64,000 nucleotides of DNA from Escherichia coli. Lineage in GTDB: Bacteria; Pseudomonadota; Gammaproteobacteria; Enterobacterales; Enterobacteriaceae. The DNA lies in the NCBI RefSeq assembly GCF_003018235.1, contig NZ_CP027437.1; one strand, 5' to 3'. The position numbers and the translations under genes are program-made. Below are positions 2 to 3,960 of this stretch, one piece after another (positions within the stretch are counted from its first letter, which is position 1; every line of letters begins with the position of its first letter). The notes under the pieces are model-generated. The model had not been told where the DNA came from, made no database searches, and saw nothing but the letters and a program-made list of their open reading frames with translations.

Positions 2-601
2 ATGCGTAAATTATGTGCAGTTATTTTGTCTGCAGCTGTCTGGCTGGTTGCTGCTGTTGTGCCAGCGGGTGCCGCAGAGTATCAGTCCACACTGAGTGCC
101 GGATATCTTCATGCCCGTTCCGGGATGTCCGGCAGTGATGATTCAGCCGGATTCAATGTGAAATACCGTTATGAATTAACGGACACACTGGGGATGGTGA
201 CGTCATTCAGCTATGCAGGAGACAGGAATTGCCAGCTGACCCGTTACAGCGATACCCGCTGGCATGAGGATTCCGTGCGTAACCGCTGGTTCAGCGTGAT
301 GGCGGGGCCGTCTGTGCGCGTGAATGAATGGTTCAGCGCGTATGCGATGGCGGGTGTTGCTTACAGCCGTGTGTCGACCTTCTCCGGGGATTATCTTCGC
401 GTGACTGACAACAAGGGAAAAACGCACGATGTGCTGACCGGAAGTGATGACGGTCGCCACAGCAACACGTCACCGGCGTGGGGGGCTGGCGTGCAGTTTA
501 ACCCGACCGAATCCGTGGCCATTGATATTGCTTATGAAGGCTCCGGCAGTGGTGACTGGCGCACTGACGGTTTCATTGTGGGTGTCGGTTATAAATTCTG
601 A
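2..601 (+). CDS. lom: Lom/Ail/OmpX-family outer membrane beta-barrel protein (phage lambda Lom homolog)
   Basis: 199 aa, signal peptide, near-identical over long stretches to lambda Lom as I recall it (STLSAGYLHA..., C-terminal FIVGVGYKF). Confidence 0.85.
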   Translation: MRKLCAVILSAAVWLVAAVVPAGAAEYQSTLSAGYLHARSGMSGSDDSAGFNVKYRYELTDTLGMVTSFSYAGDRNCQLTRYSDTRWHEDSVRNRWFSVMAGPSVRVNEWFSAYAMAGVAYSRVSTFSGDYLRVTDNKGKTHDVLTGSDDGRHSNTSPAWGAGVQFNPTESVAIDIAYEGSGSGDWRTDGFIVGVGYKF

Positions 602-628
602 TTAGCCAGGTGACACAGTGTTATGACA

Positions 629-655
629 GCCCGCCGGTTCAGGCGGGCTTTTTTG
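629..655 (+). terminator. Rho-independent terminator after lom
   Basis: GCCCGCC / GGCGGGC stem followed by a TTTTTT run. Confidence 0.7.
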
Positions 656-665
656 TGGGGGGAAT

Positions 666-1859
666 ATGCCAGTACAGATTTCAGGTGTGCTGAAGGATGG
701 TACAGGAAAACCGGTACCGGAGTGCACCATAGAGCTGAAAGCCGTGAGAACCAGTGAGACGGTGGTGGTCACCACGGTGGCGGAGTGTCAGCCGGGGGAA
801 ACAGGCAGTTACAGCATGCAGGTTGAGCCGGGGCGTTATCGTGTGACCCTGTGCGTGGAAGGTCGCCAGCCAGCATATGCCGGAGAGATTGATGTCATGG
901 CAGACGACAAACCGGGTACCCTGAATGCCTTTCTGCTCCGTGAAACGGATGCTGCGTATTACCCTGATGCACTGAAGAAACTGGAAGCGGCGGCGGATGA
1001 GGCTGTGCGCAGGGCGCGGGAAGCTGCTGAGAAAGCGGAAACTGCCGTGGGGCCACAGGGGCCAAAGGGAGATAAAGGCGAGAAGGGGGAGCAGGGGCCA
1101 AAGGGTGATAAGGGAGACACCGGTGCACAGGGGCCGAAGGGAGAAACCGGCGCTAAGGGTGACAAAGGTGATACAGGCCCCGCAGGTCCGAAAGGTGAGC
1201 GGGGCGACCCTGGCGGCCCACAGGGGCCAAAAGGGGATACGGGAGCCGCAGGTCCGGCAGGCCCACAGGGGCCGAAAGGGGATACCGGAGCCACAGGCCC
1301 GGCAGGCCCACAGGGACCAAAAGGAGATACCGGAGCCGCAGGTCCGGCAGGCCCACAGGGACCGAAAGGAGATACAGGAGCCACCGGTCCGGCAGGCCCA
1401 CAGGGACCGAAAGGAGATACGGGGGCCGCAGGCCCGGCAGGCCCACCGGGACCGAAAGGAGATACCGGAGCCACTGGTCCGGCAGGCCCACTGGGACCGA
1501 AAGGGGATACGGGAGCCACCGGTCCGGCAGGTCCGCAGGGGCCGAAAGGCGATACCGGAGCCACCGGTCCGGCAGGTCCGCAGGGTCCGGCGGGAAGTTC
1601 TGACAGCGGGTTGTTTGGCGTCGGTTCTTTTGTTCTTGCAGCGTATTACCCGACGAGTTACTCGGGGGACATGCCACCGGGCACAACTGTTGCCGGGTCA
1701 TCACTGTCTGCATGCTGCCTTTCGAATGGTACTCCCCTGATTGCGTCCGGTAATGTGGGGGAAACCCGTTTACCGGGGACGTGGCGTGCATGTGGTCCGT
1801 TAATATGGACATCTGCTGCGGGTATCAGACAGGCAGGATTATTTCAGCGCATATCATGA
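666..1859 (+). CDS. stf: Phage side tail fiber protein: lambda Stf-like N-terminal domain, central collagen-like Gly-X-Y region, short C-terminal domain
   Basis: N-terminus [17 protein letters not shown]... resembles lambda Stf; long [11 protein letters not shown] Gly-X-Y repeats; GGGGG Shine-Dalgarno before the ATG. Confidence 0.8.
1215..1583 (+). repeat. Tandem 45-bp (15-aa, [11 protein letters not shown][A/T]GPA) collagen-like repeats, 8 full units plus a partial unit, inside the tail fiber gene; the wider Gly-X-Y region spans about 1053..1595
   Basis: Direct reading of in-frame repeat units with synonymous and A/T variation between copies. Confidence 0.85.
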
Positions 1860-1869
1860 GGAGGTCAGG

Positions 1870-2475
1870 GTGGATAAGGGAAAAGAGATTCTTGCAGTAC
1901 GAAATGCCGGTTACAACGAATACGGCGGTATAAACTGTGAGGTGCAGTTTGAAGGCGCGGTGAATGAAAAAGGTGAAGCGTTATGGCTGCCATATACGGC
2001 AACGGAAACGGATAATACTGAACACGGAAAAGCATTATGGTCTGGTCTGACAGCAGGAAAGTACGGAGATGTGACCGCCTTTGCTGCCACGGAAGCTGTT
2101 CTTGAGGCGGCAAAATCGGTGAAAAGGGAGGAGATTAATCTCTGGCGGGACGTGCAGGAAAATATGGAATACGTGATGGAATTCAACGGAAGAAAATGGG
2201 ATTACGGCAAGAAGACATTGTCCAGGATAAGCACGACGCGCCTGATGGCGGAAAAAAACAGTCTTCCGGAAGGATTTGCGTGGACGGATGGTGAAAATAA
2301 TGTGGTGCCGGTGACGGCGGCGGAAGTTATCGCGCTGTCGGATGCGATAGAGAAGGCGATGTTTGCGAAGGGGGTGGAGATTAACACCAGACAGTTGCAG
2401 ATGAAAGCAGAGGTTGAGGCGCTGACAGAGCTGAAGTCCATCAGAAGTTATGTTGTTGGCTGGCCTGCCAGTTGA
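1870..2475 (+). CDS. Prophage protein in the tail fiber assembly (tfa) position, function unassigned; GTG start
   Basis: 201-aa ORF immediately after stf with a GAGGAGG Shine-Dalgarno; lambda gene order; no confident similarity to lambda Tfa from memory. Confidence 0.45.
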   Translation: MDKGKEILAVRNAGYNEYGGINCEVQFEGAVNEKGEALWLPYTATETDNTEHGKALWSGLTAGKYGDVTAFAATEAVLEAAKSVKREEINLWRDVQENMEYVMEFNGRKWDYGKKTLSRISTTRLMAEKNSLPEGFAWTDGENNVVPVTAAEVIALSDAIEKAMFAKGVEINTRQLQMKAEVEALTELKSIRSYVVGWPAS

Positions 2476-3135
2476 ATAAAAAAAGCGGGGCCACCCCCGG
2501 GCCCCGACATAACGAAGTATCAGATGTTTATAATTATTAGCTTACTAACTGTGCCATATCAGAATACTGCAGGAAGTGATGTTGTTATCATTTTTGCAAG
2601 CAGGGCGTTTCTGGAGGGAATCGATTGGTGATGGAGTGTGCAATGATGAAGGGAATAAGCCTCTGCAAAACAAAAAAAGACTTTAACAAAATCAAGCTCG
2701 CTTAGTGGCGCATCTGCCCGTATCCGCACCAGTCGTCCGGAAAATGATTCAAACACCGGGCGGCAAAAGTATTACCAGTGTAGCAACCTGGAATGCGGCG
2801 TATGCTTCTCAACTCTGGCAGCTTTCCATAAATTCACATCGAAACACGCTTCCGGCGTTCACTCTTCAGAAGGTATCCCGTGGCATGAACTGCCAGCTTC
2901 ACACTGGTGAAACAATCAGATGACTTTTCCTTTACCTCAAATTAACAGGCAGAATTGCCGGAGTAACAAAAAAACGATAGATTACGCGCGGGTGCCTTTC
3001 GGCTGATGGTCGGAGGGAATACCCGAAGGCCAGATGTGGAAAGGCCCCGGAAAACACTTTTGTTTAACCGAGGCCCTAACCGTCTACCCTAAGCAAGTGA
3101 TAGGTTAGCGCCTCCCCGAAAAAGGAGCAAGCGCT

Positions 3136-3276
3136 ATGTCGCAAAAATCGCTGATCGCCATCACGCTCTGCGTGACAGCAACCCTCATCATCTGGATATT
3201 GCACGGTTCGCTGTGTGAGATACGGATGAGTTTCTGGGGAGCGGAGTTTGCGGCGTTCTTACAGTGTAAGCAGTAA
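3136..3276 (+). CDS. Hok/Gef-family type I toxin-like small membrane protein (46 aa: MSQKSLIAITLCVTATLIIWILHGSLCEIRMSFWGAEFAAFLQCKQ)
   Basis: Not in the ORF track (under 60 aa). N-terminal transmembrane helix followed by the Hok signature SLCEIR ... E.AAF, closest in my memory to HokA and Hok of plasmid R1; AAAGGAG Shine-Dalgarno 7 nt upstream. Confidence 0.6.
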   Translation: MSQKSLIAITLCVTATLIIWILHGSLCEIRMSFWGAEFAAFLQCKQ

Positions 3277-3417
3277 GGAGACCGCGACGGGGGAGTAATC
3301 CCCCGTCAATCGGTTGTCAGGGTAAGGTCGAAGTGGCACCCAAATTTAAATAGAGGCCCACCAGTAAGAGTAAGAGCGGTGGGCTTAGCACTTGTTTAAA
3401 TTTGAAAGGAATTCTTT

Positions 3418-3714
3418 ATGAGTGAAATGGTATTTTGTCGCGGCTGCGGCAAGGAAATACATAAAAATGCCATATCTTGCCCCAATTGTGGAGCACCTCA
3501 AAGAACAGCAAGTTCAAAAAGCAGGATTACAGCTGCACTACTGGCTTTCTTTTTTGGTGGTCTCGGTGCACACAAATTTTATTTAGGTAAAGTGGGACAA
3601 GGATTTCTTTATCTTATTTTTTGCTGGACATTCATTCCGGCAATCGTGGCTTTTATTGAGTTTATTATCTATCTATGCACCTCAGATGAAGATTTCGCCC
3701 GCAAATATGGCTGA
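3418..3714 (+). CDS. Small membrane protein with an N-terminal zinc ribbon (CxxC-N11-CxxC) and a TM2 domain (GGLGAHKFYLGK motif)
   Basis: 98-aa ORF with AAGGA Shine-Dalgarno; motif reading only. Confidence 0.6.
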   Translation: MSEMVFCRGCGKEIHKNAISCPNCGAPQRTASSKSRITAALLAFFFGGLGAHKFYLGKVGQGFLYLIFCWTFIPAIVAFIEFIIYLCTSDEDFARKYG

Positions 3715-3739
3715 CATCTAGCGGACGAATCAGAATGAC

Positions 3740-3770
3740 AAACCCGCAACCCGCAGCGTAAAAACTGCGG
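3740..3770 (+). terminator. Rho-independent terminator after the TM2-domain gene
   Basis: CCCGCAG / CTGCGGG stem followed by TTTTCTTTT. Confidence 0.7.
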
Positions 3771-3960
3771 GTTTTCTTTTGCTACCCATCACGAATGAGG
3801 GCACCATAAAGAAAGCCCACAGCATAGTGGTTGCGGGCTTTTTACATTCAAAGATGGACGTTTTATGGACATTGAAAGTTTAAATCCTTTAACTTTCAAC
3901 TGGTTGATGCTAATTTTAACGCACCCGAAGGCGCGTTGGCGATACACTCAATATAAAGGA

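Follow-up and report, generated by a model that had tools for sequence, protein, structure and literature searches.

What does a tandem array of 45-bp collagen-like repeats encode inside a prophage tail fibre gene of Escherichia coli, and is the number of its units fixed? The array lies near the start of the 64-kb stretch of DNA that we analyzed (hereafter the window; coordinates are collected in the table), and a sequence-only reading had proposed that it is prone to slipped-strand expansion and contraction and may set the length of the fibre. By using Tandem Repeats Finder (TRF), we found a single array at 1215-1589 with a period of 45 bp, 8.3 copies, 89% matches, no indels and a score of 540, and this array begins in frame with the ORF 666-1859. 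The frame check and the unit table confirm the in-frame collagen-like repeats put forward earlier, while the count of 8.5 copies has to be lowered to 8.3. No other strong tandem array was found within the 64-kb window, and a degenerate pattern of the unit gave nine matches in the window as against none in 100 shuffles. Each unit encodes 15 residues, the last four being (A/T)GPA. Five of the eight complete units fit the consensus with A and T alternating, T being present in all of the last three, and GPQ is replaced in two units, by GPP in unit 6 and by GPL in unit 7. The partial ninth unit, GPQGP (1575-1589), continues into GPAGSS. Calling the DNA of the units near-identical was generous, as their pairwise identity is 80-93%. 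Variable columns of the repeat fall mostly on codon position 3 of the fibre frame and of that frame only (9 of 11, binomial p ~0.0014), and the longest exact repeats within the array measure 35 bp at an offset of 45 and 29 bp at an offset of 90.

The gene that carries the array was identified as a tail fibre gene, in agreement with the first reading, by its domains, its relatives and its neighbors. First, PF08400 matches residues 1-127 (profile positions 1-127 of 134, E 1.4e-41), PF01391 matches four stretches of the protein (E 1e-27), the ORF matches the tail fibre family phrog_366 (E 7.8e-90), and its RefSeq relatives are named "prophage tail fiber N-terminal domain-containing protein". Second, residues 1-91 align to residues 1-91 of Ur-lambda gpStfN (PDB 9E7M chain Ta, E 2.3e-27), the collar domain of which anchors the fibre to the tail (PMC12617516); by analogy, residues 1-91 would be the collar domain docking this fibre on its tail. 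Third, lom, stf and the DUF4376 gene follow one another at the end of the prophage, both in the window and in all annotated relatives, and the J gene, which lies outside the window, precedes lom in relatives, giving a J-lom-stf-tfa-like order seen in full in relatives only. Together, these homologies point to a side tail fibre of the lambda Stf type.

Table. Features of the fibre locus in the window (nucleotide positions; residues are those of the fibre protein).
Feature	Position	Strand	Basis
lom, Ail/Lom outer-membrane beta-barrel, preceding the fibre gene, as it does in lambda	2..601	+	PF06316, phrog_108
Hairpin followed by a T-run, terminator-like, between lom and fibre gene	628..657	+	consensus scan only
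stf-like side tail fibre gene, collagen-like prophage fibre, 397 aa plus stop	666..1859	+	ORF, PF08400, PF01391, phrog_366, RefSeq names
N-terminal domain, residues 1-127	666..1046	+	PF08400, PDB 9E7M match
First Gly-X-Y run, 18 triplets, residues 129-182	1050..1211	+	sequence, TRF, PF01391
Extra glycine, residue 183, Gly-X-Y register break GDP-G-GPQ	1212..1214	+	sequence
Eight complete in-frame 45-bp units, variable-number array	1215..1574	+	TRF, unit table, copy number in relatives
Incomplete ninth unit with the closing triplets GPQ GPA GSS, end of second Gly-X-Y run	1575..1601	+	
85-aa C-terminal tip domain, ends GLFQRIS	1602..1856	+	no Pfam or NCBIfam match
DUF4376 gene where the tail fibre assembly (tfa) gene would sit	1870..2475	+	PF14301, phrog_1141
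Spurious ORF, 201 aa, from stop-free repeat frame, low-complexity repeat translation	959..1564	-	no Pfam match
Spurious ORF, 219 aa, strand opposite the array	1153..1812	-	no Pfam match
Spurious ORF, 247 aa, +1 frame of the fibre gene	997..1740	+	no Pfam match

Between the collar and the collagen-like part lies a short segment rich in Ala, Glu, Lys and Arg (residues ~95-128), which is probably helical. The Gly-X-Y region described in the sequence-only reading is present, but it extends from 1050 to 1601 rather than from 1053 to 1595, and it is not continuous. Its first run holds many charged triplets and has a loose 27/36-bp periodicity (TRF rows 1055-1144 and 1099-1162). The register is then shifted by one extra glycine that falls exactly where the 45-bp array starts, and the interruption formed there, GDPGGPQG (residues 180-187, nt 1203-1226), is kept in all 12 alleles that we compared. 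The second run counts 43 triplets (residues 184-312), 40 of which belong to the eight 15-residue units.

Copy number was compared in these 12 alleles, namely that of the window and 11 from complete E. coli genomes, which carry 5, 7, 8, 9, 10 or 11 units. Viral contigs of IMG/VR carry up to 12 units, the second Gly-X-Y run of the IMG/VR relatives spans 126-186 aa, and full-length members of the protein clusters measure 307-397 aa. Two alleles, L002 and L005, have 7 and 11 units, yet only 1 of their 807 flanking (non-repeat) bases differs, and L005 carries a duplicated block of three units. The closest relative of the window allele is L012. Both lie at the raiA site, have the same number of units and show no mismatch over the 807 flanking bases; all 16 differences are located within units 2-4, and the unit D found at position 4 in one is found at position 2 in the other. 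Over the 12 alleles, the 97 units make 60 distinct DNA units and just 17 distinct peptides. The 27-bp tail of the array is the same length in 11 of the 12 alleles, L004 having 36 bp. The array is thus an in-frame variable-number tandem repeat, with a copy number that differs between alleles with nearly identical flanks, and since the count varies among related prophages, the invariant count on which the idea of an expanding and contracting array would founder was not found.

Since units share identical stretches of up to 35 bp, spaced 45 bp apart, the array would gain, lose and reshuffle whole units, whether by slippage during replication, by unequal recombination or by gene conversion, and this turnover would be much faster than point substitution. 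A 45-bp unit is a whole number of codons, so that every such change preserves the frame, and because the changes are in frame, the array alters length and does not switch the gene on and off. In agreement with this, all 12 alleles and the full-length IMG/VR copies have an intact reading frame, and we rejected phase variation at an on/off contingency locus on these grounds. The mechanism proposed at first, slipped-strand expansion and contraction, holds as regards the change in copy number, slippage being one of several mechanisms that fit. Shuffling of units agrees equally well with unequal recombination or gene conversion as with slippage. A literature search on repeat turnover in phage collagen-like repeats returned nothing specific.

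It is quite possible, although we put it forward tentatively, that turnover relies chiefly on homologous recombination or gene conversion and less on replication slippage, with the exchange taking place inside the array itself or involving paralogous fibre genes on other prophages of the same host, and that N- and C-terminal fibre modules are swapped at the array, which would then double as a crossover zone. First, in genomes with a match, the matching places number 8 at the median and 18 at most, and the complete genome CP076709 has two full lom-stf-DUF4376 modules with identical N-parts and with units A, J and E in common. Second, units were replaced at a constant count between the window and L012, which simple slippage cannot do in one step. 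Third, at 29-35 bp, the exact repeats are longer than the minimum of roughly 25 bp for RecA-dependent recombination in E. coli. Fourth, some relatives (P0009, P0029, P0012 and P0052) have their N-part and collagen in common with the window protein and switch to another C-terminus inside the collagen, and another one (P0057) joins a different N-part, with a long coiled coil, to the same tip as the window protein. However, the expansion in L005 is a local tandem duplication of three units, to which slippage or unequal sister-chromatid exchange would be equally well suited, and recombination and slippage are not mutually exclusive.

Variation of this kind could also be without consequence. The J gene is annotated in the closest relatives as a pseudogene missing its C-terminus and followed by a gap of ~390 bp before lom. 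This may mean a defective, non-inducible prophage with a decaying fibre gene, the copy number of which drifts neutrally without effect on any phage. Moreover, a collection of 50,697 phage records gave no full-length match to the fibre gene, the best match covering 15% of it, within the collagen of Stx phages. We nevertheless hold this explanation to be unlikely. The intact frame in 12/12 alleles does not fit with decay, nor does the bias toward synonymous sites, visible both in the codon positions of the variable columns and in the few peptides encoded by the 60 DNA units. Furthermore, J is intact in other relatives (L003, L008, L009 and L010), and IMG/VR viral contigs, the longest of 48 kb, also carry related fibres.

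Many database proteins of this fibre family are partial and broken inside the array, so that copy numbers taken from draft assemblies are unreliable and those from short-read assemblies should not be trusted. Given that strains carry several paralogous collagen-like fibre genes as well, the copy number of the window, or the array itself, might be an artefact of repeat collapse or expansion, or might stem from the chimeric joining of paralogous prophage copies. This appears very unlikely. The complete genome CP076709 agrees with the window in gene length (1194 bp), in number of units (8.3), in the raiA site and in its flanks, which are identical. The units differ mutually by 7-20%, and 6 of the 8 units of the window recur in independently assembled alleles (L012, L007, L006, L002 and L005). 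In addition, the open frame is followed by a conserved C-terminal domain behind the array. Finally, we rejected as highly improbable that the protein belongs to the bacterial surface, as a collagen-like adhesin of the Scl/Lcl kind, and not to a phage. Its NCBIfam scores (Lcl 153, Scl2 123 and Scl1 112 bits) are confined to the Gly-X-Y region and fall well short of the curated cut-offs (500, 325 and 400, respectively), its N-terminus is a phage collar domain with no evident signal peptide, and its gene order is lom-stf-DUF4376, with J upstream in relatives.

The reading that we favor is thus that the array very probably codes for the greater part of the shaft, a collagen-like triple helix, of a Stf-type side fibre, the gene of which lies at the right end of a lambdoid prophage integrated next to raiA, with whole units gained, lost and reshuffled in frame. 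Three chains would form one fibre. The collar would dock on the tail and lead, via the short helix, to the 18 charged triplets of the first run; the extra glycine in GDPGGPQG would then break the register and probably create a flexible point ahead of the 43 triplets that include the eight units, and the 85-aa tip would presumably trimerize, nucleate the helix and bind the receptor. At a rise of ~0.288 nm per residue, each unit would add ~4.3 nm of triple helix, and the array would contribute ~37 nm to a collagen stalk of ~53 nm.

This protein family, and the variable length of its collagen stalk, have already been described. Ghosh et al. 2012 (PLoS One 7:e37872, PMC3368898) named the E. coli prophage collagen-like proteins EPclPs, sorted them into the architectures EPclA to EPclD, and reported from CD, AUC and EM experiments that EPclA and EPclB form trimers with a collagen CD spectrum and a thin stalk. 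Like the EPclPs, the window protein has a PfN (PF08400) N-terminus, a Gly-X-Y domain (18 + 43 triplets), a place at a prophage tail-fibre locus and Pro mostly at the X position in a GP(Q/P)-GPK-G(D/E) pattern. Its GDPGGPQG agrees with the G-X-P-G-G-P-X-G interruption reported for the EPclPs along with that pattern (PMC3368898), and in both sets the collagen length varies between copies by multiples of three residues. In contrast, the coiled-coil domain PCoil found in EPclA, EPclB and EPclD (about 88-116 aa, 116 aa in EPclA), and present in P0057, is absent from the window protein, in which only ~35 residues separate PfN from the collagen starting at residue 129. The PfC (PF06820) C-terminus that defines EPclA and EPclB is also absent, the window protein having an unrelated tip that ends in GLFQRIS where EPclA ends in DVKGLD according to the primers. 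The protein is therefore neither EPclA nor EPclB, and ranks among the EPclC/D-like proteins, carrying a different tip. It fits the description of EPclC/EPclC*, which are rarer, have a non-PfC C-terminus and often miss PCoil (PMC3368898), and its tip is probably the same as that of EC55989_1078, judging from length arithmetic. The 45-bp unit structure and the turnover of units were not analyzed in that study (PMC3368898), to which our data add a clean comparative example with 5 to 11 whole units between the same or nearly the same flanks. Copy-number change together with unit reshuffling at a constant count points to a fast, frame-preserving turnover of the collagen stalk. None of this biology is new in kind, and its main value lies in annotation and assembly.

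Ur-lambda gpStf (PDB 9E7M) has a homologous collar domain and the same place after lom, and is a trimeric side fibre that speeds adsorption (PMC12617516). Side fibres of the lambda Stf type enter the virion as four trimers. The shafts differ, that of the 774-aa lambda Stf being composed of coiled-coil and gp37-like segments with a hinge whereas that of the window protein is a predicted collagen triple helix. Lambda Stf binds OmpC and is followed by Tfa, the place of which is taken in the window by the DUF4376 protein. The latter matches PF14301 (E 7.5e-15) and phrog_1141, annotated "tail fiber protein" (E 4.7e-78); neither a classical Tfa-family chaperone domain (Caudo_TAP, PF02413) nor any NCBIfam match was found in it. 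Its gene adjoins the fibre gene in all relatives examined, a position that suggests a putative chaperone role.

Whether the number of repeats sets the length of the fibre, as first proposed, can be approached from the stalk seen by Ghosh et al. 2012 and from BclA, the exosporium filament protein of Bacillus anthracis, in which the collagen repeat number sets filament length (Sylvestre et al. 2003, J Bacteriol 185:1555, as cited in PMC10470788). By analogy with these two cases, it is a reasonable inference that copy number may do so here. BclA is a trimeric collagen-like filament with a C-terminal domain that drives trimerization (PMC10470788), which is what we propose for the window fibre. On the other hand, BclA is a glycoprotein of the bacterial spore surface and does not belong to a virion, its repeats are glycosylated, Thr-rich GXX triplets, and its terminal domains are not homologous to those of the window protein. 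The collagen region of the window protein matched the sequence of 1WCK weakly. In siphophages of Streptococcus thermophilus, tail adhesion proteins also contain collagen-like stretches, of 100-500 aa and very variable, that link adhesion modules (PMC7533335). These phages differ in that their hosts are Gram-positive, their repeats lie in Tal/host-specificity proteins and not in a Stf-type side fibre, and their proteins have no homology to the window protein outside the Gly-X-Y region. If fibre length affects adsorption, arrays such as this one would be a simple route to tune host range or adsorption rate, and they could offer a handle to engineer fibres of defined length. In the streptococcal phage DT1, Duplessis and Moineau 2001 reportedly observed that collagen-like repeats were lost spontaneously, the host range being unchanged. 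A stronger version, in which the array is a selected device that matches the reach of the fibre to the variable thickness of O-antigen or capsule on E. coli hosts, by rapid in-frame turnover of 4.3-nm units and by co-resident prophages trading units and tips via the collagen repeats, seems to us doubtful at best; were it true, copy number would track the surface type of the host and not drift neutrally.

The tip presumed to trimerize and bind the receptor has few relatives. Profile searches of Pfam and NCBIfam gave no match, and a phmmer search of 1.84 billion representatives returned just 6 matches, all of them prophage fibres or fragments. An AlphaFold2 model built from an 8-sequence alignment is all-beta with a pLDDT of 72, and by comparing it to the PDB with Foldseek we obtained nothing with an E below 1. 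The same tip follows the collagen in other fibre architectures (P0057 and P0075).

The long ORFs that overlap the array, all three of which are on the mechanical ORF list, had been taken as spurious from the beginning, and our data agree. We rejected them as real genes for three reasons. First, the Pfam search of the three ORFs gave no match. Second, four of the five alternative frames over the Gly-X-Y region contain no or one stop. Third, the codon-position-3 bias backs the fibre frame only. The three ORFs are thus by-products of stop-poor repeat frames and should not be called as genes in annotation. Upstream of the fibre gene, the lom product matches PF06316 over its full length (E 4.6e-112), and the hairpin predicted by consensus scan between both genes has an 8-bp stem with 7 GC pairs, followed by TTTTTTGT.

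Residues 1-127 of the 397-residue protein encoded by the gene carrying the 45-bp repeat match the prophage tail fibre N-terminal domain (PF08400), the collagen family PF01391 is also matched, and the best PHROG match is a tail fibre family. Residues 1-91 align with the 94-residue "Tail fiber protein" chain of PDB 9E7M (E 2.3e-27), that is the Ur-lambda virion, in which twelve gpStf N-terminal domains make up the tail collar, with four trimeric side fibres projecting from it (PMC12617516). From 2476 on, the DNA is E. coli chromosome adjoining raiA and bamD, 99.5% identical to E. coli O158:H23 CP076709, which has a lom-stf-DUF4376 module at the same raiA site. These domain matches, together with the lom and DUF4376 neighbours and the raiA flank, show that the array codes for the shaft in a side tail fibre gene situated at a lambdoid prophage's right end, as the sequence-only reading had it in calling this a tail fibre gene.

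Three small genes separate the module end from raiA (2476-3960); they may be left over from another mobile element at the same integration site. The J (tail tip) gene lies upstream of lom, outside the window, and its state was read from the annotation of relatives. It is a pseudogene missing its C-terminus in the closest ones (L001, L002, L005, L006 and L012, with ~390 bp of unannotated DNA between J and lom) and intact in more distant ones (L003, L008, L009 and L010). Given this truncation, the window's prophage may be defective; alternatively, its J may have a C-terminal module that escaped recognition.

Coordinates of the features in and around the fibre gene
Feature	Position	Strand	Remark
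lom	2-601	+	PF06316; upstream of fibre gene
Fibre gene	666-1859	+	stf-like, 397 aa
Extra glycine, GDP-G-GPQ	1212-1214	+	45-bp array begins directly after
Eight complete 45-bp units	1215-1574	+	encode [11 protein letters not shown](A/T)GPA
DUF4376 gene	1870-2475	+	downstream of fibre gene, in tfa position
Ogr/Delta-like zinc-finger gene, truncated	2722-2910		identical to gene annotated in CP076709; no canonical start codon
Hok/Gef-family toxin ORF	3136-3276		
TM2-domain gene	3418-3714		

Tandem Repeats Finder (TRF) placed the array at 1215-1589 (period 45, 8.3 copies, 89% matches, no indels, score 540), the sole strong tandem array within the 64-kb window, starting in frame with the fibre ORF. 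A degenerate pattern of the unit gave 9 matches in the window and 0 in 100 dinucleotide-preserving shuffles. The A/T position alternates in units 1-5 and is T in each of units 6-8, GPQ is replaced by GPP in unit 6 and by GPL in unit 7, and a partial ninth unit (GPQGP) runs into GPAGSS. The in-frame 45-bp array is thus confirmed, while its description as near-identical DNA was somewhat generous, with pairwise unit identities of 80-93%. Likewise, the array does sit in a longer Gly-X-Y region, but this spans 1050-1601 rather than 1053-1595 and is discontinuous: 18 triplets, the extra glycine, then the array. The first run (1050-1211) is less regular, with a loose 27/36-bp periodicity (TRF rows 1055-1144 and 1099-1162), and in-frame 24-residue deletions occur there in some related proteins (P0003, P0005), so that lengths vary outside the 45-bp array as well. 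A terminator scan also returned three minus-strand hairpin-plus-T sites inside the array (1328-1349, 1418-1430 and 1463-1484), two of them copies of one unit sequence; most likely they arise from the repeat itself and are not signals.

The three long ORFs overlapping the array (959-1564 and 1153-1812 on the minus strand, 997-1740 on the plus strand), all present in the mechanical ORF list, were rejected as real genes, in line with their earlier description as spurious. First, long open frames are expected, as stops are absent across the Gly-X-Y region from the fibre frame, the +1 frame and two of the minus-strand frames, and the third minus-strand frame has one. Second, their translations are repeats with no Pfam match. 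Third, of the 11 columns that vary among the eight units, 9 are at codon position 3 of the fibre frame (binomial p ~0.0014).

We then compared 12 alleles, the window and 11 related ones from complete E. coli genomes, each divided into a 549-nt N-part, the array and a 258-nt C-part. Copy number ranges from 5 to 11 units among these related prophages and is therefore variable, not invariant as a refutation of the sequence-only reading would have required: 5 in L003, 7 in L002, L006 and L007, 8 in the window, L001, L008 and L012, 9 in L004 and L010, 10 in L009, and 11 in L005. Outside the repeats, L002 and L005 share all but 1 of 807 bases, yet they have 7 and 11 units (dJDeDfO versus dJDegfhifhO, each letter a distinct DNA unit), with a three-unit block duplicated. 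The window and L012, at the same integration site, have no flanking difference in 807 and equal counts; all 16 differences lie within units 2-4 (ABCDEFGH versus ADIJEFGH), unit D being at position 4 in one and 2 in the other. The 97 units of the 12 alleles fall into 60 different DNA sequences, which encode only 17 peptides. Such differences between alleles with near-identical flanks show that turnover of the array, in whole units, is much faster than substitution in the flanks, while the peptide repeat is conserved. Lengths also vary in other data sets, from 307 to 397 aa among full-length members of 90%-identity protein clusters, and a second collagen run of 126-186 aa occurs in IMG/VR viral contigs with the same C-terminal 85-residue tip.

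The window's copy number was read from the deposited assembly, and many deposited proteins of the family are fragments starting or ending inside the array, indicating that draft assemblies often fail here. An artefact is nevertheless unlikely, since the complete genome CP076709 has the same count at the same site. An IMG/VR copy (L020, contig 2617270976_000012) has, within its array, a patch of 10 non-collagen residues ([16 protein letters not shown]). The patch resembles a frameshift corrected by a second one; either a sequencing error or an interruption that the protein tolerates could explain it.

An on/off phase-variation switch was rejected, the unit length being a multiple of three; every length change is a multiple of 45 bp (9 bp in the first run) and preserves the frame. 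The turnover would be compatible with replication slippage, with unequal sister exchange and with gene conversion. Exact matches between units reach 35 bp at an offset of 45 bp and 29 bp at one of 90 bp. The replacement of units at constant count between the window and L012 suggests that recombination or conversion contributes, and so do the related places within single genomes, which number up to 18 and in CP076709 include two full modules. In that record, where 18 places match the fibre gene, the modules are L001 (hyaA/tRNA-Ser site) and L012 (raiA site), with identical 549-nt N-parts, 2 C-part differences and partly shared units. Moreover, P0009, P0029, P0012 and P0052 keep the N-part and collagen with other C-termini from inside the collagen, and P0057 joins a long coiled-coil N-part to the window's tip. 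From these swaps, the collagen repeats seem to be a zone of crossover as well, where modules are exchanged.

The tip has no match in Pfam or NCBIfam, and its only 6 relatives among 1.84 billion representatives are all prophage fibres or fragments, including a 619-652-aa fibre type with the same tip after a collagen run of 33-residue units. Its AlphaFold2 model is all-beta (pLDDT 72) with no fold match in the PDB; conserved positions are G..(V/L).A, a GTW motif and a terminal LF.R(I/V). Judged by position, the tip would serve trimerisation and receptor binding, and the DUF4376 protein would be its assembly partner. P0075 (652 aa) and P0112 (619 aa), whose tips are 45% identical to the window's, have a different, common E. 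coli architecture (PfN, collagen, Pf2 repeats, globular insert, second collagen, tip); the second collagen has the 33-residue unit, and listed lengths are 601-688 aa in steps of multiples of three residues.

The window fibre belongs to the E. coli prophage collagen-like tail fibre proteins (EPclP; Ghosh et al. 2012, PMC3368898), sharing their PfN domain, collagen composition, interruption motif and prophage context. It lacks PCoil and PfC, the domains defining EPclA and EPclB, which places it with the rarer EPclC/D-like forms having other C-termini. That study also reported that copies differ in collagen domain length by multiples of three residues. Features of this kind are already known; the observation is confirmed and its interpretation supported. 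What this analysis adds is the organisation into 45-bp units, the unit-by-unit mosaicism in alleles whose flanks are identical, and a connection between the fibre N-terminal domain and the solved Ur-lambda collar.

In the same study, two expressed E. coli O157:H7 prophage collagen-like proteins formed trimers with a collagen CD spectrum, electron microscopy revealed a thin stalk between two globular ends, and the C-terminal domain trimerised and renucleated the helix (PMC3368898). With the rise of 2.88 Å per residue predicted there, each 15-residue unit would add ~4.3 nm, the array region (129 residues) ~37 nm and the entire collagen part (183 residues) ~53 nm, and alleles with 5 and 11 units would differ by ~26 nm. 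Bacillus anthracis BclA offers a precedent in which collagen repeat number sets filament length (PMC10470788). The conserved GDPGGPQG interruption, a type also reported by Ghosh et al. (PMC3368898), probably makes the stalk flexible where the charged first run meets the regular array.
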